NCBI GenBank assembly: GCA_964448195.1
Contig: CAYUVP010000001.1
Location: forward strand, 12,430 to 42,255
Source: an uncultured Candidatus Peribacteria bacterium
GTDB lineage: Bacteria > Patescibacteriota > Gracilibacteria > BD1-5 > JAGOOR01
Reading direction: 5' to 3'
Length of the DNA stretch: 29,826 bases
The notes beneath the pieces are model-generated. The model had not been told where the DNA came from and did no database searches. It saw nothing but the letters and a program-made list of their open reading frames with translations. How positions within the stretch are numbered: the first letter of the stretch is position 1; every line of letters starts with the position of its first letter. Made by a program: the position numbers and the translations under genes. Below, one piece after another: positions 3,075 through 15,689 of this stretch.

Positions 3075-3770
3075 ATGTATCTAATAAACCTTATCGGCTG
3101 AAGTGGATCTGGAAAATGATATCTCGCGGAGAAAATCATTGAAGCTTTTTGAGCAGACAGAGTAGACACAATCCCTTATGACATGTATTACTATCCTGAT
3201 GCAGAATTTCCGAAGCATCTCTATATTGATTTCGAAGGGAAAAAATTTAAAAATTTTGATACACCAGAGGCTCTAGAAACAGAACTACTTATCAAACATA
3301 TAGAACAACTCAAAAATGGTCACGAGGTGCAAATACCAGAGTATGATTTTGGCAACAACCCCACTGGTAAATCTCAGAGAAAAACAGGACGAATTGTTAA
3401 ACCAAAAGATTTTATTATTCTCGATGGACTCTTCTGACTCTGCCATCCTCAACTCAGAGAGCTCACCGATGTAAGCATTTTTATTGAACTCTCCGCAGTC
3501 AATCGTATGGCCCGCCGTATGATTCGTGATTGGGGTCGTGGACAAGCTCGGAGCGATATGGGAGAGCCTGGCATGGCTGATGATATTCTCTTTTATGTAA
3601 CATTTGTACAGGCTGGTTACGCTAAATATGTGGAGAGTTATAAACAATATGCAGACCTCGTAGTAGATAATAATGAATGGATTCATGAGTGAGTAGAACC
3701 AAAAATGATAGATATAGTGATTAATTACCTGCGGGGTAAGTTTGATTTTCAGAAAAATTCGATAGTATAG
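3075..3770 (+). CDS. udk: Uridine/cytidine kinase family protein, 231 aa
   Basis: P-loop [33 protein letters not shown] and RRMIRD. Ends TAG 3768-3770. Confidence 0.85.
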
Positions 3771-3775
3771 GGTCC

Positions 3776-4858
3776 ATGAAGTTTGACCTCCAAAATCTCG
3801 TTGAAGAAAGTAAAAATCTCGAAGCACTCCTCGCTGATGGGAGTATTTTTAGTGACCAAAAGAAGGTAAAAGAAATAATGATTCGAAAAAAACATATTGA
3901 TCCAATTGTGAAGCTTTATCTCATCTATGAGAAAACGTCACACGATTTCGAAGAAGGAAAAAGAATTCTGGAAAATGAATCTGACGAAGAGCTTCGTGAA
4001 ATGGCAAAAATGGAAATATCTTCACTTGAAGCAAAAATTCCAGAACTAGAAGAAAAAATAAAAATAGCTCTTATACCTCCAAACCCTAATGACGACAAAA
4101 ATGTCATGATTGAAGTACGTGCTGGCGCTGGTGGAGATGAAGCTGGCCTCTTCTGAGCAGAGTTAGTCGAATGTTACCGTCTCTATTCAGCACAAAACAA
4201 ATTTCAAGTAGAAACTATGTCAGAGTCAAGAAATGACGCTGGGTGAATCAAAGAAGTAATATTGAAAATATCTGGAGAAAAGGCATATTCAAAATTCAAA
4301 TTCGAAGGAGGCACTCATAGAGTGCAGAGAATACCTGAAACTGAAAATAAAGGAAGGGTCCACACTAGTACAGTAACCGTCGCAGTACTTCCTGAAGTTG
4401 ACGAATTAGATATACAAATTCGTGATGAAGATTTAGAATTGACGTATTGTCGTGCTGGCTGAGCTGGATGACAACATGTTAATAAAGTAGAGTCAGCTGT
4501 ACGTATGGTACACATACCAACTGGAATAGTTGTAGAATGTCAGGATGAAAGATCTCAAGTAAAAAATAGAGAAAAGGCTCTTTCAGTTATGCGTGCAAGG
4601 GTCTATGCATTTGAAGAAGAAAAGAGAAATAAAGCTCTTGGAGAAGCCAGACTTGCACAAGTTGGTACAGGGGATAGGAGTGAAAAAATCCGTACTTACA
4701 ATTTCCCGCAAGATCGTGTCACAGATCACCGCATCGGAGAAAATTTCTCAAATCTTCCCTCTATCATGCTCGGCAACATAGGGGATATAGTTGTAAGCCT
4801 AGAAACACACGAACAAACCCAGAAAATAGCACAAGCATCAGGTGTTGATATTGCTTAG
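3776..4858 (+). CDS. prfA: Peptide chain release factor 1, 360 aa
   Basis: [24 protein letters not shown] (RF1 PxT motif), GRVHTS, GAGGQHVNK and [20 protein letters not shown]. Four internal TGA sit at Gly-compatible positions. Confidence 0.97.
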
Positions 4859-4884
4859 TTTTCTATAAATTATATAATCTTTAT

Positions 4885-5331
4885 ATGTTTGAATTCCTCA
4901 AAAAACCAATTCAGCCAATCTGAGAAACAGAATCGTCTCATCGAGACATCCCGATAGAATCAACTGAGGACCCTCATGGTGAGGACGTCGGGCAGATTGC
5001 TGTTGATATACTAGAAATACACGAATGATACCTCATCATAGCCCCTCTTGCCGGAGTACCGAGAAGTGATGTCGATGTAACCATTTCGCGGAATGTTTTG
5101 ACCATATCAGGTAATCGACCTGAACCAGAAGTCTACAGTGAAGCTTTTAAGATACCAGTAAAAGAATGTTTCTACGGTCCATTTTCTCGCTCAATTATCC
5201 TTCCAGAGAACTTAGCCCTTGATACTATACGAGCAACGATTGAACGAGGAATGCTAATAGTTACTATCCCCTACCTCATCGTCGATGCCCGCACAGTAAA
5301 AGTAGAACACATAGAAGATGGCGAAGAATAA
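4885..5331 (+). CDS. Hsp20/alpha-crystallin small heat-shock protein, 148 aa
   Basis: AVDILE...IIAPLAGV...VDVTISRNVLTISGNR...ECFYGPFSRSIILP...IRATIERGMLIVTIP. Confidence 0.88.
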
Positions 5332-5342
5332 TATTTATTACT

Positions 5343-5513
5343 ATGTTTTTTAATAGAAAATCAAAAGAAAAAATAAAAAAAATGGATATCTTGATCACAA
5401 GCATCGTGCTCAGTACTATTATTGCTTGAGCTTTTTGACTCAAGAGTAAAAAAGACGATCAGACAAAAGAACCTTTTTGGAAAAAAATAGTCAAAATATT
5501 TTTATGAAAATAA
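5343..5513 (+). CDS. Small single-pass membrane protein, 56 aa, hypothetical
   Basis: MFFNRKSKEKIKKMDILITSIVLSTIIAGAFGLKSKKDDQTKEPFWKKIVKIFLGK fills the gap between neighbours and has one hydrophobic helix. It is open only with TGA=Gly. Confidence 0.55.
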
Positions 5514-6178
5514 AATATATATTTATTGTTTTAGCTCTTCTATTCTCTGCCTTTTGTTTTTCTGAAAGTGGAAAATGTACCTATTTAGAAAGCAATAATG
5601 GCTTTATTAATACGCCCAAGAATTCATTTGGTTATTATTATAATATTCAGCTTTGCAAGGAATTTGAGCCCATCACTGAAGATGCAGTAAAGTATGTGCA
5701 ATCTATAAAACAGACTAAAGGAAAAAATATACGTGAGGTAGTGACGGAAATAGGCAACACTCTCTGTCGTTGATCATTTGGTGAGTGCGGAGAGAAGGCA
5801 TTTTATGATAGATATATGGCTGCCTGTGAAACTGCCCGAGAAAATGCCAAAGAAGATCTAGCAAAGTATAAAAAAATAGATAAAAAGGCTCTTACTATTC
5901 CTGAAAATGATGAAATATACGCCATGAGTTTCACAAAATGTGAGCCTCTTGCAAATTCCTTGTTGGAAGTTTTTAAAGATGTAGCAGGGCAAGAAGCGGC
6001 AAAATACCATGATAAAATAATAGAATCATCTAGTGGTAAATATCTCAAACCGTCATACGAGCTCATGCAGAAGCTCAGCAATACAATGGGGACTATCATT
6101 AAAAAAATTGGATCCACAGCTCGCTCATTTGAATGATTTATTAGAAATGTTTACAATACCTGATTTACTACAAATTAA
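5504..6178 (+). CDS. Secreted cysteine-containing hypothetical protein, 224 aa
   Basis: Signal-peptide-like N-terminus MKIKYIFIVLALLFSAFCFS and six further Cys. The stop TAA overlaps the rsmA ATG (TAATG). Confidence 0.7.
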
Positions 6179-7026
6179 TGACTGCGCAAAAAGTAGAAGC
6201 AAAAAAACATTTGTGACAAAATTTCCTCAGAAACACTGATATTTTAAGAAAAATAGTATGAGAATCTTCATTGTTATGACTTCATGTCGTAGAGGTAGGG
6301 CCTGGTCCTTGAGATCTAACAGCAGAAATTCTCAATAAAAATCCTGACTCTCTTTCTGTGATTGAAATTGATAGCGACATGATACCTCTCCTTCAAGAAC
6401 GCTTTAGTAAAGATCAAATTGAACTCTATTGGTCTGATGTTCTCAAAATCAATATTTCCAAAGGAAATACTTCCTCAAATAAAAAGAATACTTTTTTTCA
6501 AGTTCATAAAGAAATAAAGGAGATAATAATACCGGAGTATGAATTATACGGAAACATACCTTATTACATCACCTCTCCAATTATTTATCATTTTTTCTAT
6601 ACGGTTAATTTTCCCCCAAATAAAGCAACTTTTACTATGCAAAAAGAAGTGGCGGAAAGAATACTTGCACGAGACGAAAAACATTCTGTTCTTTCTGTGA
6701 GCTGTCAGCTCGTAGCTGATGTGGAGAAAGTTTGCGATATCAACCCTCAGTCCTTCTATCCTGTACCAAAAGTGTGGTCTAGTTGCCTCAGATTTACCCT
6801 AAAAAAAGATGTCTCAATACAGGATTCACGGGAAATTATAAAAATAGTAAAACAAGGTTTCTCTCAAAAACGTAAGAAACTTATGTGAAATCTCTCACAA
6901 ATATACAGTAAAGAAAAACTTATGCAGATTTTTCATAATATACGTATAAGCCCTGATGCACGCGCTGAAGATCTAAAAATAGACAACTGGAAAGAGCTTT
7001 ATACTCAATTGGGGCATTGCGAATAA
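6178..7026 (+). CDS. rsmA: 16S rRNA m6,2A1518/1519 dimethyltransferase, 282 aa
   Basis: KKHLGQNFL, EVGPGPGDLT, IEID, GNIPYYIT, MQKEVAERI, FYPVPKVWS, FSQKRKKL and RAEDL. Confidence 0.95.
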
Positions 7027-7049
7027 TAATAGGCACTCTCTTCTTGGTT

Positions 7050-8465
7050 TTAGACTCAGAGTTTTTCTCGAAGTGAATAAATATCATTCGAGAGTCTTTG
7101 ATCTTTTTTCATAAGTATTTCAAGTTTTTTGCAAGAATACATAACTGCTGAATGCTCTCGACCATTAAATATATTGCCAATTCTCTCGTAAGTATACCTG
7201 AGTTTATTCTTGAGGAGATACATAGCAACTTGTCTCGGTATCCTGAGATCTCGGCCACGATTTGCTCAGAGTAATGCTTCGACCTCTATGCCAAAGTATT
7301 CACTAACTCAATTGAGAACCTCCTGATAAGAAACCGATCGAAGTATATTTTTTACACTTCCCTCTTTTTGTCCTATGTGAGAATGTTTGATGCCAAGACG
7401 TGTAAGCCTAGAAGATATTGATTCAATAGTTGGCATGCAACCATCGAGCTCATATTCTGCAATCATTTGATTAAGAATACCTTCTATCTCACGAACATTT
7501 CTTCCCATGTTATACGATATATATTCTGCTACTTCTTGTGGTATTATGAATTCTCTTTCTCTCGCTTTTTGTTGAATAATAGCAAGTCGGGTCTCAAAAT
7601 CAGGAGCATCAATATCAACCATGATTCCACAATCAATCCGACTCACTAGACGAGGCTCTATTTCTACAAGTTCTTTTGGAGGACGATCAGAGCTGAGAAA
7701 TATCTGTTTCCCTGCGTCATAGAGAATATTAAAGAGTGTGTACATTTCCTCTTGTGTGCTCTTTTTTCCTGCCAAGAATTGTATATCATCAACTAACAAC
7801 ACATCTATTGTTCTAAAACGAGCACGCATCTGGTCTATCTTTCTATCCTTTACTGCATTGACATACTCTGATACAAATTGATCAGAGGTAATATAGACAA
7901 CTTTTTTTTCTGGGAATTTCTTTTTAATCTCTAAGGCAGTTCATTGGAGAAGATGAGTCTTACCAAGGCCCACTTCAGAATAGAGGAAACACGGATTATA
8001 ATTTACTCCTGGCTTACGAATAACAGCATCGCAAGCAGAATAAGCAAGTTGATTGCTTGGTCATACTACAAAATGCTTCAAATCAAAACGAGAAGAAAAG
8101 CTCTCCTTTCATGCATATTTCTCGACAGGTTGGCTTTCTTTTTCTTTTTGATTTGCTCGAAAAGTTTTACGACAATCAATTACCTGTGTATATGACACAT
8201 TTTCAATTTGAGCATCGACTATGATGTCTACTTTTTTAATGTTAGGCCCCCATATTTCCTGAGCTGTAGAATTAAGAATATCACCGAAACGAAAACTCAT
8301 GTTATCTCGTATAAATGATGAAATAACACCAATCACAATGATGTCTGTTGATTGTGATACCAGACTAATTTTCTGAAAATAAGTCAGGAAATCTTGTTTT
8401 CTCATACGTTCCCCGAGGAGTTGAGAAAACTTCTGAAGTTGAGCAATGTCGGAGAGCGTTGTCAT
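7050..8465 (-). CDS. dnaA: Chromosomal replication initiator DnaA, 471 aa
   Basis: [59 protein letters not shown] and PRQVAMYL. True stop TAA at 7052-7050. Confidence 0.96.
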
Positions 8466-9423: not shown

Positions 9424-9999
9424 CTAGAGTGTATTAGGAACAGTACCGCGAAGACTAAAAAAATGAAAAGCAAGAACTACGCAAGCGCATAAAAGTACAA
9501 AGACTCCTATCATAAGTACCGTTGAAATGAGTTTTTCCTTCTGATATTTTCCCTCTATATCATTTTTAGTTTGGACGAGTATATCCATGTCATGAAGTCG
9601 GCTCGAATTAGCTTCCTCTAGAGCAATCATTGCTTTTTTGTGTTCCAATCTTGGGACAGTATTTGTCATTTCTGATTCCAATCTTCCGAGCTTGAATGTG
9701 AGCTCCTGAATAAGCTGATCTTTATCTCGAATAACAGTTTCGAGCATTCGTAATATCTCATTTTGCGCTTCACGTGGATCGTAACCAATACTTGGAACGA
9801 CTGTCGGTTTTGGTGCGAGAACTTCGTAGTCCGTCTGAACCCCTCCTCACTTTACCTGTGATACATCTTCCTTATGAAGCATGATTACTTTACCTTCACG
9901 TTTAGTACGAATTTTACCAGAATGAATATATCTATCAACAGTACGAGTTGAGACACCTAGCATCTTAGATGCATCGTCGCGAGTGAGTGTAAAGACCAT
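9424..9999 (-). CDS. HTH (excisionase/MerR-like) plus coiled-coil plus C-terminal TM protein, 191 aa
   Basis: N-term MVFTLTRDDASKMLGVSTRTVDRYIHSGKIRTKREGK (HTH_17-like), heptad-rich middle, hydrophobic tail LISTVLMIGVFVLLCACVVLAFHFF. Confidence 0.82.
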
Positions 10000-10100: not shown

Positions 10101-10142
10101 GTCTAACATCTGAGTTAGACTCTATAAAAATATTTCTATAAT
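10101..10142 (+). promoter_or_regulatory. crtI promoter with overlapping 7-6-7 palindrome (candidate operator)
   Basis: GTCTAAC-atctga-GTTAGAC at 10101-10120 overlaps a TAGACT -35-like hexamer. TATAAT at 10137-10142 lies 6 nt before ATG 10149. Confidence 0.5.
10129..10142. repeat. 14-bp direct repeat, copy 1 (AATATTTCTATAAT)
   Basis: Identical to 12852-12865. Confidence 0.8.
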
Positions 10143-10148
10143 AGGGCC

Positions 10149-11633
10149 ATGAAAAAGAAAATTGCCATTATTTGAGCAGGTCCAGGATGACTCTCGGCTG
10201 CTATGCTTCTCTCACAACAAGGTCACAAAATAGATATCTATGAAAAAGATACTATTATTGGTGGTCGTAATTCACGACTAACACTCGCCGAAAAATATCA
10301 CTTTGATGTTGGTCCAACTTTTCTTCTTATGAAGCCTTTTCTCGATGAAATATTTGAGAAAACAGGGAGAAAATCATCTGACTATATTGATTTTAGACAG
10401 GTCGATCCGATGTACGATCTTCACTTTGCAGATGTTTCTGTCTCAATGACAAGTGATCATCAGAAAATGCGTGCCACTATAGCAAAACTCTTTCCGGGAG
10501 AGGAAACATGATTCGATAAGTATCTCGCCTGTGAAGATAAACGCCTAGAAAAAATGTACCCTTGTCTTGACATGGACTATAGCAAGTTCTCGAGAATTAT
10601 AAAAAAGTGGAAACATCTCCTCGAAGTTATCCCCTATCTCTCGCTCGGTAAATCAATCTATCAGGTCTTGAGTGGATATTTCACAACAGAAGAGCTCAAG
10701 CTCTGTTTCACCTTCCAAGCTAAGTATCTCGGTATGTCGCCATGGAGCTGTCCAGGGTTTTTCTCGATGCTCGCCTATGCTGAGCACAAATACGGTATCT
10801 ATCATACAATAGGATGACTCTCTGAAATATCCGAGGCTATGGTAAAAGTAGCACAGGAAAATGGTGCCATTCTCCATCTCAAAACTCCAATTAAAAAAGT
10901 CATAACAAAGAATGGCGTAGCAACAGGTGTACAATTCGAAACAGGTGAAATAGAAGAGTATGACTCTGTTGTTGTCAACGCTGATTTCGGTACTGCTATG
11001 ACACAACTCTTCGATGAAAAAGATGTCCGAAAATATTCAGCAAAAAAACTTTCAAAAAAGGGATTTTCTTGTTCGACTTTTATGGTGTATTTGGCACTCG
11101 ATAAACTCTATAATCTCCCGTTTCACTCTATTTATTTTGCAAAAGAATATCGAGACCAGCTTGATAAAATCCATCACAACAAACCAATTGGAGACAAGGA
11201 TTTCTCATTTTATGTTCGTAACGCTTCGATTATCGATAAAACTCTCGCACCCGAGTGACACTCATGAATCTATATACTCATTCCTATGTCTAATCTCAGA
11301 TCTGGTGAATCATGGGAAGAATCACAAAATACTATATGGTATGAATCAGCTCTCAAAATGCTTGAGACACGTGCATGACTCAGTGATATCAGGAGTCACA
11401 TTGTTGCCTCTGAAACAATTAATCCAAAAGATTGGGAAAATCGTGGAGTTTATATGGGTGCGACTTTTAACCTCTCTCACAGTCTCAATCAAATGCTCTA
11501 TTTCCGACCTCGTAACGAATTTGAATGTATCAAGAACTGCTACCTCGTTGGAGGAGGCACGCATCCGGGAAGTGGACTTCCGACCATATATGAAAGTGCA
11601 AAAATAGTGGCAGGAATTATTGAGAAAGCATAA
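10149..11633 (+). CDS. crtI: Phytoene desaturase (CrtI/CrtN) family FAD oxidoreductase, 494 aa
   Basis: IAIIGAGPGGLSAA Rossmann motif (two TGA-Gly), IGGRN, FDVGPTFL, FQAKYLGMSPW, VVVNAD, SCSTFMVYL, GATFNLSH, QMLYFRP and YLVGGGTHPGSGLPTIYESA. The substrate cannot be assigned from sequence. Confidence 0.88.
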
Positions 11634-11638
11634 ATACC

Positions 11639-12853
11639 ATGTCTTTATTCTCCTTTTTCTGACTTATCTATCAGATATTTATAGACAAAATTCCAAATCT
11701 GGATTCTATTCGTCAGAAGTGACTTCTTGCAACAAAAATCTGACAACTCTATGCGCTTCGTGCTGATTTTATCGGTGTTGAACGAGCGAATATCCTCACA
11801 CAACTTTATGAGAAAAACTTCGATACGACAAAAATAAATACCCCCTATTCTTTTGAGGAGAATTTTCGGAATCAATTTGAATCAATAGATGGTGTAGCTT
11901 TTTCTGAAGCAAGTATAGGAAAGGTTTATGGTGCCAAATGGAAATGACGTGATGTAGTTATTAAAGTTATTAAATCTGATTTTCGAGAGAAATTTATCAC
12001 TGACGTGAATCGACTCAAAAAATATTTCAAATTCATGATTTTTTTCTATCCGAAACTCGCACGAGTGGCTGACCCTATTGGTACGCTCGAAGATCTCGAA
12101 CGCATGACGCTCTCTGAGCTCGACCTGAGGAATGAGATAAAAGGTGTCTCGGTGCTCAAAAAAACACTCGATAATCACAGAGATTTCATCAGAAAAACAG
12201 TATCACATGAGCTCACGTTTCCAGAATGTATCACGGAACTCTCAAGTGAAAAAATACTTGTCTCCGAACGATTAACTGGTTCATCTTTTCGAGAACTTCT
12301 TGATACTGGCACGCTTCCCTACCCTGTGCTCATCGATTTCTTTTTTCAGCATGTTTTCTGCATGCTCCTCGATGGTTATTTTCACGAGGATATCCATAGT
12401 GGTAATATTTTCTTCCAGGATAACAAAATATATCTCCTCGATAATGGTTCTATTGGTTTTGCCTCAGAAAAATTACGTCATGGACTGACAAGCTTCTTTT
12501 ATAATCTCACGCATGACAGAATAGCAGAATCAGCATTATCTCTCATCCTTATGGCAGAAAATTCTGAACGAAATAAACACAATTTTTCAAGGTATGAGAG
12601 AGACTTTTGTAAGCTCTACGGAGGTTTTTCAAATAAAACACTACGAGAGCTCTCACTCACACAACAAATGATGGCATCCATAAAGATGGCAGTCCACACT
12701 GGGTACACATTTGAACGTGGTATGTATCCGATTATCAAGAGTTTTATGTATCTCGATGGTATGGCAAGAACATGTAAACCAGACACAAAACTTATGGAGG
12801 ATGTACGACCTCTTATAGAACGTTTTTGCGAATATAGTTGATACAAAGCATAA
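11639..12853 (+). CDS. UbiB/ABC1/AarF-family atypical protein kinase-like ATPase, 404 aa
   Basis: KIGQ (KxGQ motif, Gly = TGA 11741-11743), EASIGKVY (A-rich loop), VVIKV, ELDLRNE, FHEDIHSGN and LLDNG. True stop TAA 12851-12853. Confidence 0.88.
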
Positions 12854-12865
12854 TATTTCTATAAT
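12852..12865. repeat. 14-bp direct repeat, copy 2 (AATATTTCTATAAT); contains a TATAAT upstream of obgE
   Basis: Identical to 10129-10142 and overlaps the kinase stop codon. Confidence 0.8.
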
Positions 12866-12890: not shown

Positions 12891-14225
12891 ATGTTCATCG
12901 ATGCTGTAGACGTAAAATTCCGTGCAGGAAATGGAGGAAATGGAATCGTTTCTTGGAGACGTGAAGCCCGCATTGCCAAATGAGGTCCATTTTGAGGTGA
13001 TGGAGGGAGAGGAGGCGATCTCATTGTCATAGCTGATCCGAATATTAATACTCTCTCAGATTTTCGCTATGTAAAAGAAATCGCTGCAGAAGATGGTGAA
13101 CGTGGTGGAATACAACTCATGCATGGTGCTAATGCGTCAGATAAAATAGTCAAACTACCTGTCTGAACCCTTATTTATGACAAAGAAACAAATGAGCTGC
13201 TCCATGATCTCGCAAGAGAATGAGAAACGGTAAGACTCTGCGTAGGCGGTCGAGGGTGATATGGAAATGCTCACTTTGTTGCTGCCACACGTAGAAGCCC
13301 TTGTTTTGCTGAAAATGGAGATACTGGCACAAAAATCGCGGTACACCTCGAGCTCAAGCTCGTCGCAGATGTCGGTATCATTGGTATACCTTCTGCTGGT
13401 AAATCAACTCTCATTTCTTGTGTTACCTCTGTCAGACCAAAAATTGCAGACTATCCATTTACGACCCTCATCCCAAATCTCGGAGTCATGGAATATAAAG
13501 GTCAAAATATGGTACTCGAAGATGTACCCGGATTGATTCCTTGAGCACATAAAGGCGAAGGTCTAGGAATAGAATTTTTAAAGCACATAGAGCGTACTCG
13601 TGTTCTCTGTCATCTCCTCGATGCAGGAAAATATGAATGATGCATCACTGACTATGACGCTATTCGCAACGAACTAGCCCTTTTTAATCCAACAATGCTC
13701 GAAAAGGTAGAAGTAATAGTTCTCGCAAAATGCGATCTGCTCGATAGCGACATGGTAGAAGATCTCAAATCTCAGATAGAGAAAAAAACAGGGAAAAAAG
13801 TATTTCCTATTTCTGCACCGATTGGTGAAGGTCTCGAGGCTCTCCAAGATGAACTCATAAAACATATTACCAAAGTTTCCTCTGAGGTGAAAATTGATGA
13901 AAAGACGATTATTGACCTCCATGATAGAAGGGACGATAACGAATATGTCGTTACTCCTGAATGAAATTACACATACCGTGTAACTGGCATCCGTATAGAA
14001 CAAATTGTCCGTATGACACCAATGAAGTACCCTGAGGCAATTGATCGTGTCTGGGATGTCATGGATAAGAGAAAAATAACAAACGAAGTGATACGTTGTG
14101 TTATCCGTGAGTTACCAGAAGATGATGATAGAAAAAATCTCTGAGACACCTCGAGTCTTTGGTATACTATTGAATGAAAAATACTCATCGGTGACTGCGT
14201 ATTTCATTTTAGAGACTATAGGTAG
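12891..14225 (+). CDS. obgE: GTPase Obg/CgtA with C-terminal extension domain, 444 aa
   Basis: [56 protein letters not shown] and DVPGLI. C-terminal [15 protein letters not shown]. Ends TAG 14223-14225. Confidence 0.96.
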
Positions 14226-15689
14226 TTAAATCTTGCACACAATTCCATTGCACTGCATATTGCGCTCTAGAGACTTCCTGCAGAGTTTACCATGAACGAC
14301 ATCATAGATGTCTCATGGAGCTGGAGCAGTAATAGTTGTTTCTTTGAGGTTTTGGAGCTCTTTCATCCCTGATGTAAGTGCATCCATACCTTCCTTTTCA
14401 CCATGGACGAGAAATATCTGCTTTGGATTACCACAGTGTTCAGCAAATTCTAGGAGTCATTTACGGTCAGCATGTCCTGAAAAAGCGTTAAAAACAGCTA
14501 TCTGCATCTTCACTTTTTTGACTTCATCAAATATAGTCACCTCTGTAGCACCTTCGAGGAGTTTTCTTCCGAGAGTATTTTCTGCCATGAAACCAATAGC
14601 GAGAAGGAGATTTCTGCTATCTTCGATATTATTTGCTACATGATGAACAATTCGTCCATACTCTACCATGCCAGAGGCAGCAATTATGATAGCTGGATAG
14701 TTGATACGATCGAGGCCTTTTGATTCTTCGACACTTCGTACAAATCGTACCCCTTCTCCTTCGAGAAATGGGAAAAGTCCTTCATCTTTAGCTTCTAAAA
14801 CTTCTTGATCGAAACATTCGGGATGAATCTTGAAAATATCAGTCGCTCCAGTAGCAAGTGGTGAGTCTATGTAGATAGGGAGCTTCATGATTTTCCCTTG
14901 ATGCATCAAGAGCCTCAGGACGTAGAGGATTTCCTGCGTGCGCTCAACAGCAAATGCTGGGATAAATATTTTGCCTCCTCGATCGACAGTATCATTGATC
15001 ACTTTTGTGAGTTTTTCTTCTATTTGTGATATTTCATCATGAAATCTATTTCCGTAGGTAGACTCAGTAATCAGAATATCCAGATCTTTCAATTGAACAG
15101 GTTCACGGAGAATTGGGAGATGTTTACGTCCGAGATCACCGGTGAAGCCAAATCGAATATGTTCACCTGTTTCTTCATCATCGATTTCCCATTCTTCGAG
15201 AGCAGAACCGAGAATATGACCAGCATCATGAAAAGTCATAAATACGCCCGTATGAAGTGGGATTTTTTGTTCATAGCTTACTGATCGGAATTGCATAATA
15301 GCTGCTCTCGCGTCTTCTTCTGAATAAAGAGGCTCTATAGTTTTTCCCAGCTTACGTGAGAGATGCTCGGCATCATGAGTCTGTATACGTGCTGAATCCT
15401 GTAACATAATAGAGCAGAGATCTCGAGTAGCATGAGTACAATATATAGGTCCAGAATAACCATTTTTAACGAGAAGTGGGATAAGTCCTGCATGATCAAT
15501 ATGAGCATGTGAGAGGATCATAGCATCTATCTCATTTGTTTTGAGTGGGAGAAATCTATTTGCCTCATCAGATTCACGACGACGACCTTGAAACATGCCA
15601 CAATCAAGGAGAAATGTTTTGCCATTAGCACGGAGGATATGTTTTGATCCTGTCACAGTTTGTGCAGCACCGACGAATTCTAGTTGCAT
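14226..15689 (-). CDS. MBL-fold/beta-CASP ribonuclease (CPSF73/YSH1-like bacterial family), 487 aa
   Basis: VTGSKH, LLDCGMFQG, SHAHIDHAG, DAGHILGS, FTGDLG, TESTYG, AFSGHAD and FLVHGE. True stop TAA 14228-14226. Confidence 0.92.

Follow-up and report, generated by a model that had tools for sequence, protein, structure and literature searches.

A CrtN-type desaturase and a short UbiB/ABC1-family protein as a conserved gene pair in Gracilibacteria and other phyla

Considered here is a stretch of 29,826 nucleotides (nt; 'the window', i.e., the whole of the DNA analysed) from an uncultured Candidatus Peribacteria bacterium of the Gracilibacteria (contig CAYUVP010000001.1 of assembly GCA_964448195.1, positions 12,430 to 42,255), and within it two adjacent genes at window positions 10149-12853. 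The first encodes a desaturase of the CrtI family, of CrtN type, and the second a short, predicted soluble, atypical kinase-like ATPase of the UbiB/ABC1 family. A CrtI-family gene is located within 1 kb of such a short ABC1 gene in 69 of 80 loci from across phyla, which supports viewing the two genes as a conserved functional pair, as a reading of this DNA from sequence only had proposed. Both families are already known, and 'orphan' CrtN has already been noted in the literature; no publication describing the CrtN-ABC1 pairing was found there, in keeping with the novelty that the same sequence-only reading had suggested. What is added here is the one-sidedness of the coupling, the placement of the desaturase with CrtN, and a three-state polymorphism within one genus. 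As to mechanism, the ABC1 ATPase may extract or present a membrane polyisoprenoid for the CrtN-type desaturase, the two being parts of one co-transcribed module; this reading, by analogy with UbiB and COQ8, is one to which we give about even credence.

Two intact genes under a code with TGA as glycine

The window was translated under table 11 and under table 25, with the latter reading TGA as glycine. Under table 11 the region 10149-12853 fragments into open reading frames (ORFs) of fewer than 280 amino acids (aa), versus two long, same-strand ORFs under table 25 (Table 1). The desaturase frame ends in TAA and is intact. The second ORF spans 11525-12853, for which the sensible start is the ATG at 11639, and this too gives an intact protein. 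In-frame TGA codons are found at columns which, in family alignments, are invariably glycine, i.e., G9, G14 and G223 of the desaturase and G28 of the kinase-like protein, and both outer glycines of the flavin adenine dinucleotide (FAD)-binding motif of the desaturase are TGA-encoded. As these in-frame TGAs align with invariant glycines of both families, the reading of TGA as glycine is confirmed. Purifying selection is strong on both genes, with ratios of nonsynonymous to synonymous substitution (dN/dS) of about 0.05-0.11 versus relatives in the genus, comparisons in which dS is near saturation.

Table 1. Features of the desaturase-ABC1 cassette and its surroundings (window positions)
Feature	Position	Strand	Description
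Desaturase	10149..11633	+	CrtI-family, CrtN-type FAD-dependent desaturase, 494 aa, 7 in-frame TGA=Gly (profile matches, tree)
FAD dinucleotide-binding motif	10167..10190	+	IIGAGPGG, residues 7-14; G9 and G14 are TGA
C-terminal conserved block	11535..11597	+	NCYLVGGGTHPGSGLPTIYES, residues 463-483; (near-)invariant in subfamily, common to Pantoea CrtI
Spacer	11634..11638	+	ATACC, 5 nt, desaturase stop to kinase start
Kinase-like protein	11639..12853	+	Short soluble UbiB/ABC1-family atypical kinase-like ATPase (predicted), 404 aa, 5 in-frame TGA=Gly
KxGQ motif	11735..11746	+	KIGQ, residues 33-36
A-rich loop	11903..11929	+	SEASIGKVY, residues 89-97; family consensus ASASVGQVH, hence Q95K, H97Y
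Catalytic loop and metal-binding motif	12380..12451	+	FHEDIHSGN (HxDxHxGN), residues 248-256; DNG (D268), residues 268-270, family consensus DTG
Direct repeat, copy 1	10129..10142	+	Exact 14-bp repeat AATATTTCTATAAT; holds TATAAT (10137-10142), ending 6 nt before desaturase ATG
Direct repeat, copy 2	12852..12865	+	14-bp repeat overlapping kinase stop; forms -10 of best promoter-like site (TTGATA-16-TATAAT, 11/12) upstream of obg
dnaA	7050-8465	-	
234-aa protein			No family match; between dnaA and HTH_17 gene
HTH_17 gene	9424-9999	-	HTH_17/excisionase-type protein, 191 aa, divergent from desaturase
obg	12891-14225	+	
beta-CASP RNase	14226-15689	-	

The desaturase scores 397.3 bits against the crtI_fam model TIGR02734 (cut-off 238.1), matches PF01593 and PF13450 as well, and falls below every equivalog cut-off scanned (CrtD, CrtO, CRTISO, HpnE and others). 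The frame is as complete as had been supposed. As a single sequence, its residues 4-491 align with residues 3-487 of the phytoene desaturase CrtI of Pantoea ananatis (4DGK) at 189 bits, and a profile of its subfamily aligns with that protein end-to-end at 374 bits. Shared with Pantoea CrtI are the FAD-dependent, amine-oxidase-type fold, the N-terminal GxGxxG and a C-terminal GGGTHPGxG block; the window desaturase differs, however, in being only about 30% identical, in belonging to a clade other than that of the crtB-linked CrtI-type genes, and in having no crtE/crtB context. R148 and D149 of Pantoea CrtI, considered as candidate catalytic residues, are not conserved in the alignment and carry no weight here. 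The peak 19-residue Kyte-Doolittle mean of the desaturase is 1.35, which is below transmembrane hydrophobicity.

Placement of the desaturase is based on a maximum-likelihood tree of 120 CrtI-family members, drawn from surveyed loci along with paralogues in the same genomes. A clade with an SH-aLRT of 100 contains all of the ABC1-linked desaturases except for the canonical-type crtI of one Candidatus Paceibacterota locus (L041). Paralogues adjacent to SQS_PSY genes (PF00494; crtB, crtM, hpnCD or sqs), from Mollicutes and others, branch outside of this clade, and Mollicutes indeed hold both kinds, i.e., a crtM-adjacent paralogue and, separately located, an ABC1-linked desaturase. Among 250 sampled Bacillota there are also three clusters (L131-L133) consisting of a desaturase-like gene, a paralogue, SQS_PSY and a further paralogue, which is the make-up of a C30 carotenoid cluster, and the first gene of these is 44-48% identical to the window desaturase. 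As those first genes nest within the ABC1-linked clade, with the remaining paralogues outside of it, the window desaturase is placed as CrtN-type. It thereby shares with CrtN of C30 systems the family hidden Markov model above cut-off, the length and architecture of the solved CrtI, and a clade. It differs from those systems in that CrtM/HpnCD/Sqs and CrtP or CrtQ were not found in the window genome or its relatives, and in that the C30 clusters are without ABC1, whereas the window desaturase has an ABC1 ATPase as its partner.

Santana-Molina et al. 2022 (PMC9907078) report CrtN in Firmicutes (including Clostridia), Verrucomicrobia, Planctomycetes, Fusobacteria, Acidobacteria and Poseidoniia, with Clostridia, some Fusobacteria and Fibrobacteria holding CrtN without CrtM, HpnD or Sqs. 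They call its function in those lineages unclear, and they name no kinase. The taxonomic spread of the window-type desaturase fits that published spread of CrtN, synthase-less lineages included (PMC9907078).

The second protein matches PF03109 (ABC1) at 97.3 bits (cut-off 22.9) and remains far under the UbiB equivalogs, with 133 bits versus 487.55 for TIGR01982 and 98 versus 667 for PRK04750. With UbiB of E. coli and with COQ8A/B (ADCK3/4; Coq8 of yeast) it shares PF03109, KxGQ, an A-rich loop in a variant form, the catalytic lysine, HxDxHxGN and the aspartate of DFG, and all of the motifs that had been picked out from the letters, including the ASIG loop and the DNG variant, are present (Table 1). 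In alignments of 56 sequences, K33/Q36, K109 (in VVIK), H249/D251/H253/G255/N256 and D268 are all invariant. Within the A-rich loop a near-invariant glutamine has become lysine, and the consensus histidine tyrosine. Unlike UbiB and COQ8, the protein is just 404 aa long and is without membrane helices; the lack of a C-terminal transmembrane pair, also pointed to previously, holds up, in that no membrane helix is predicted and the peak 19-residue Kyte-Doolittle mean, 1.53, stays below transmembrane hydrophobicity.

Structure was modelled with AlphaFold for a homologue that is 86% identical to the window kinase (P0126; pLDDT 89.9). The best matches of that model are COQ8A structures, with template-modelling (TM) scores of 0.62-0.65 over about 400 columns, i.e., full length and inclusive of the N-terminal helical KxGQ domain. 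Next is the mycobacterial soluble ABC1 ATPase MABP-1, at a TM score of only about 0.5. MABP-1 (Rv3197 / MSMEG_1954) is a soluble, macrolide-binding bacterial ABC1 ATPase with a hydrophobic ligand and is the window kinase's best match in the PDB by sequence, but on the MABP-1 model, NF050082, the window kinase reaches 35.2 bits, under a cut-off of 800. We know of no desaturase partner for MABP-1. Overall, sequence comparison supports viewing the second protein, whose catalytic residues are all retained, as probably a soluble, ATPase-type member of the UbiB family. A complex prediction for adjacent homologues of the two proteins, encoded on one contig (P0006 and P0126), scored 0.00, which gives no verdict either way.

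Distribution of the pair and the one-sidedness of its coupling

The survey behind the above count of 80 loci used one genome per species, searched with an alignment of short ABC1 proteins. The resulting loci, from more than 15 phyla, are found in Gracilibacteria, Saccharibacteria and other members of the candidate phyla radiation (CPR), Verrucomicrobiota, Lentisphaerota, Kiritimatiellota, Fibrobacterota, Bacteroidota, Ignavibacteriota and Delongbacteria, and as well in Thermodesulfobacteriota, Acidobacteriota, Fusobacteriota, Bacillota, Mollicutes, Gammaproteobacteria, Chlamydiota, Woesearchaeota and an archaeon labelled Methanobacteriota. Among the 69 loci with a neighbouring CrtI-family gene, 66 of the neighbours are at least 38% identical to the window desaturase. 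The desaturase is upstream of ABC1 in 44 and downstream in 25, both are on the same strand in 61, and the median gap is 52 nt, with the window's own genes being, as had been read, 5 nt apart. Of the 11 ABC1 loci without a desaturase, six break off, on one side, no more than 700 bp from the ABC1 gene. All four of the metagenomic ABC1 homologues that were examined (40-45% identity; contigs of Dethiothermospora, Edwardsbacteria, Parcubacteria and one further contig) have a gene of the amine-oxidase family, encoding about 495 aa, either adjoining or two to three genes off.

Clustering of all neighbours over 84 loci turned up no further generally conserved neighbour around the pair. Those seen are lineage-restricted, i.e., DUF2141 (11 loci), glutathione peroxidase (5), PNPOx-like (4) and YtfJ/AhpC-like (3) proteins. 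The DUF2141 protein, of about 146 aa, lies between desaturase and ABC1, for example in L027, L034-L036, L038, L066 and L097 (Bacteroidota, Ignavibacteriota, Delongbacteria), and the glutathione peroxidase follows the pair, as in the Acholeplasmataceae locus L059. In two loci ABC1 is set in a genuine carotenoid context. In the archaeon labelled Methanobacteriota (L103, 6001-9538 onward) ABC1 is followed by one gene, a CrtN-type desaturase and SQS_PSY, and the desaturase there forms a basal branch of the ABC1-linked clade. In the Candidatus Paceibacterota locus noted above (L041, about 3500-7200) a short ABC1 gene is accompanied by SQS_PSY and by a crtI of canonical type, whose product has 29% identity to the window desaturase. 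Canonical-like CrtI-family genes (27-32% identity) are present in 35 of 400 evenly sampled Patescibacteria.

The coupling is one-sided. In that same sample of 400 Patescibacteria the subfamily desaturase occurs in three genomes, one of which has a short ABC1 gene as well, at a distance of 10 nt; in none of the 400 is a short ABC1 gene seen where the desaturase is missing. Of 200 Verrucomicrobiota, eight have the desaturase and none of these eight ABC1, and three close desaturase homologues on long metagenomic contigs have no ABC1 nearby. As ABC1 is almost never seen without an adjacent desaturase, with the desaturase often seen alone, it is the ATPase that is viewed here as the accessory.

The same may be seen on a smaller scale within the window's genus, where three states coexist. 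The desaturase is present in 8 of 18 other genomes, with the kinase beside it in five and with obg next to it, and no kinase, in three. The entire cassette is missing from the other 10, and in the five of these cassette-less genomes that were checked the helix-turn-helix (HTH) gene lies immediately next to obg, in divergent orientation. Searches using tblastn gave no significant kinase remnant in the three relatives with only the desaturase, nor any of the cassette in cassette-less relatives. Another genus of the same order has the reverse gene order, i.e., kinase upstream of desaturase. The ATPase is dispensable, given the three genus genomes with the desaturase only. It looks like an optional accessory to the desaturase, and the cassette like an accessory trait.

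Possible substrates and roles of the ATPase

In the window genome (916 kb, 79% complete), PF00494 (SQS_PSY) is without a match, and none was found either in 10 desaturase-carrying relatives, five of which are at least 90% complete. The earlier observation that no carotenoid synthase is nearby therefore extends well beyond the window, and this absence matches the published 'orphan CrtN' puzzle (PMC9907078). Found instead, both on other contigs than the window, are one polyprenyl synthase and one UbiA-family gene. Contig C27 (L130:1890-4358) has UppS, a farnesyl diphosphate (FPP)-type synthase and phosphatidylserine decarboxylase in a row, and contig C46 (L129:2917-3849) the UbiA-family gene, which is akin to decaprenyl-phosphate phosphoribosyltransferase (201 bits, cut-off 207). 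Neither IspH nor a GHMP kinase was found in this 79%-complete genome. As the isoprenoid genes found are limited to those for UppS, an FPP-type synthase and a UbiA-family transferase that uses polyprenyl phosphate, the substrate here would be either foreign (squalene- or dehydrosqualene-like) or an endogenous polyprenyl lipid. Across phyla, SQS_PSY genes are present in 24 of 49 pair-carrying genomes, versus 2 of 17 genomes with the subfamily desaturase (16 of these 17 without ABC1). As only 24 of the 49 hold SQS_PSY, the pair is not dependent on an endogenous synthase. The idea of ABC1 as a marker of synthase-less genomes was rejected on these same counts.

The following mechanism may be proposed. 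The pair would be a co-transcribed, self-contained module, with the first gene supplying a peripheral-membrane flavoenzyme of the CrtN branch; CrtN-type enzymes of C30-carotenoid clusters desaturate 4,4'-diapophytoene or squalene. The short ABC1 protein would serve as an accessory ATPase to that enzyme, lacking a membrane anchor and with ATP-binding and catalytic residues intact. ATP might then be used, by analogy with UbiB and COQ8, to pull a very hydrophobic polyisoprenoid from the bilayer, or otherwise to make it available, and to pass it to the desaturase. We infer all three of the delivery of substrate by the ATPase, the lipid nature of that substrate, and its origin.

The analogy is with a proposal that UbiB draws hydrophobic intermediates of ubiquinone out of the membrane for use by a soluble complex of enzymes, a function that is ATPase-dependent (preprint 10.64898/2026.03.05.709815). 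This proposed handling of membrane-embedded isoprenoid lipids by UbiB and COQ8 would be the likeness to the window kinase's role. The partner of UbiB or COQ8, however, is a multi-enzyme Ubi or Coq complex, whereas that of the window kinase is a single desaturase, in an organism not known to make ubiquinone. A further parallel is with the ABC1K proteins of plant plastoglobules (ABC1K1, ABC1K3 and others), which are ABC1 proteins that occur together with enzymes of prenyl-lipid and carotenoid metabolism and have been implicated in the homeostasis of prenyl lipids (PMC9725166). These, by contrast, are eukaryotic, larger, multi-paralogue and organelle-bound, with a link to carotenoid enzymes that is one of co-localisation rather than of operon.

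Several points weigh against this proposal of substrate presentation by the ATPase. The desaturase lacks ABC1 in many genomes, including in bona fide C30-type clusters, and the ATPase consequently is not essential for catalysis. Of the 17 genomes with the subfamily desaturase, 15 are without SQS_PSY, so that what the subfamily usually acts on may be something other than a C30 backbone. The CrtN anchors of the tree are known by gene context rather than by experiment, none having been experimentally characterised. Co-transcription of the pair we infer solely from the 5-nt spacing. Lastly, the window kinase itself deviates at near-invariant positions of its family (Q95K, H97Y, G250E, P254S).

An alternative concerns the origin of the substrate, and not the coupling. 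This is CPR-specific scavenging, as had been put forward in the sequence-only reading, whereby squalene, dehydrosqualene or carotenoid precursors, acquired from a host or from prey, would be mobilised by the ATPase and then desaturated or reduced by the flavoenzyme, to the benefit of membrane protection or photoprotection. The missing SQS_PSY of the window genome and its 10 relatives is in line with such a role. Lacking IspH and GHMP kinase, as found in the 79%-complete genome, even the source of isopentenyl diphosphate would be unclear. A DNA photolyase gene (C79:2984-3436, 115 bits) makes exposure to light or ultraviolet radiation plausible, and the cassette is gained or lost within the genus as an accessory trait would be. 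The pair, however, is not special to CPR, as it is found in more than 15 phyla including free-living ones (Verrucomicrobiota, Acidobacteriota, Bacteroidota, Fusobacteriota, Bacillota, Mollicutes and archaea), and it is present in only 1 of the 400 sampled Patescibacteria. Scavenging in place of synthesis is countered as well by the 24 of 49 carriers having their own synthase, and scavenging fails to account for the presence of the pair in free-living bacteria with squalene or diapophytoene of their own making. The data do not require scavenging, which is possible for the window genome, and as an account of the pair we place it on the unlikely side, if with an appreciable chance of being correct.

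A bolder reading is that the pair is a minimal, self-sufficient machine acting on a non-carotenoid lipid, with the substrate in synthase-less organisms being undecaprenyl phosphate or a similar polyprenyl carrier of their own, or else foreign squalene. This is offered tentatively, as an unlikely reading. If true, then it would represent an undescribed lipid-modification pathway and would provide the UbiB family with a first single, defined client enzyme.

The ABC1 protein might instead carry out ATP-dependent chemistry on a small molecule, that is, phosphorylation of a polyprenol or of a hydroxylated intermediate, or a UbiB-like decarboxylation, with the two enzymes then catalysing successive steps. 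The catalytic lysine, HxDxHxGN and the metal-binding aspartate are invariant across the subfamily, as such chemistry would lead one to expect. To our knowledge lipid-kinase activity has not been established for any UbiB member. Decarboxylation that is dependent on ATP, on UbiB and on its ATPase has on the other hand been reported (preprint 10.64898/2026.03.05.709815). As the desaturase is by itself in many genomes, however, no obligatory two-step pathway is apparent, and we consider successive chemical steps to be rather improbable.

Quite improbable, in our view, is a role of the ABC1 protein as a protein kinase that regulates the desaturase by phosphorylating it, along the lines proposed for ABC1K1 of plastoglobules and tocopherol cyclase. 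It does possess a protein-kinase-like fold and catalytic residues, and for plant ABC1Ks, which occur together with carotenoid enzymes, a role as regulatory kinases of prenyl-lipid metabolism is presumed (PMC9725166). The best full-length structural match nonetheless is COQ8A, and the window protein is without an activation-loop-type extension. The N-terminal KxGQ domain of COQ8A is described as occluding the peptide-binding cleft, with COQ8 being an ATPase that is not known to have protein-kinase activity in trans.

That the adjacency has no functional meaning here, the genes being unrelated accessories or a decaying remnant, would accord with the absence of the cassette from most of the genus, with the loss of the kinase in three genus genomes, and with the kinase's deviations at some near-invariant positions, but is very improbable and indeed strongly disfavoured given retention in 69 of 80 loci across phyla, in both gene orders, and given dN/dS of about 0.05-0.1 in two intact genes.

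The proposal of an ATPase that presents substrate to a desaturase is of interest in part as the role of UbiB/ABC1/COQ8 proteins has long been debated, with lipid extraction, kinase activity and lately ATP-dependent decarboxylation all considered. The usual UbiB-family systems are membrane-bound and within large complexes. Here, by contrast, is a short ABC1 protein, of about 400 aa and with no predicted helix, accompanying one well-understood type of enzyme. With a soluble short ABC1 protein, a single partner, and some carriers cultivable, direct tests of UbiB-family function should be feasible; cultivable names among the labels of carrier metagenome-assembled genomes are Ilyobacter, Victivallis and Fibrobacter. 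The pair is relevant as well to the puzzle, already published, of why anaerobes without a substrate-forming synthase have CrtN-type desaturases, and it shows that such a desaturase is retained, with purifying selection acting on it, by some reduced CPR genomes.

Cassette boundaries, neighbouring genes and occurrence

Two copies of a 14-bp direct repeat are found at the ends of the cassette (Table 1). In cassette-less relatives the same repeat words are located about 35-40 nt upstream of obg, and the 2.7-kb cassette therefore appears to sit in the obg promoter region, with a duplicated -10 box. This layout is consistent with gain or loss of the cassette by insertion or recombination. The TATAAT of the first copy is possibly the -10 box of a leaderless or near-leaderless transcript, and no terminator-like site was found between desaturase and kinase. 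Promoter-like sites in the region, however, are no more frequent than in shuffled sequence, so that the earlier description of the two genes as being behind one promoter goes further than the data do.

The surroundings of the cassette are made up of housekeeping genes (Table 1). The HTH_17 gene remains beside obg in cassette-less members of the genus (L123-L127) and, as it is kept in these, its product is not a dedicated regulator of the cassette. Relatives have a conserved, opposite-strand ORF of about 160-180 aa between obg and whichever of the desaturase, kinase or HTH genes is next to it (L007:2980-3578, L009:963-1501, intergenic stretches of L124-L127, L128:5205-5681), with words in common such as AIFSP...VP.GGK. 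In the window just 38 nt separate kinase and obg, which leaves no room for this ORF.

The beta-CASP RNase downstream of obg scores 406 bits on the model for Cas14 of type VII CRISPR (cut-off 800) and 315 bits on that for aCPSF1; most likely it is an ordinary enzyme of RNase J/CPSF type. Elsewhere in the genome, a candidate rhodopsin link was rejected. That is, the borderline match to PF01036 (24.8 bits) is a false positive. It falls in the membrane segment of a repeat-rich surface protein that exceeds 1,300 aa (contig C30, L145:3-3998). No heliorhodopsin was found in the window genome, in a search that had no working control.

Among the sequencing runs that were searched for sequence words of the stretch, the sole RNA run contained 0.05 of them. 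DNA near-identical to 10149-12853 is seen mainly in wastewater, activated-sludge and freshwater metagenomes, with five runs, from four studies, containing at least half of the sampled words.

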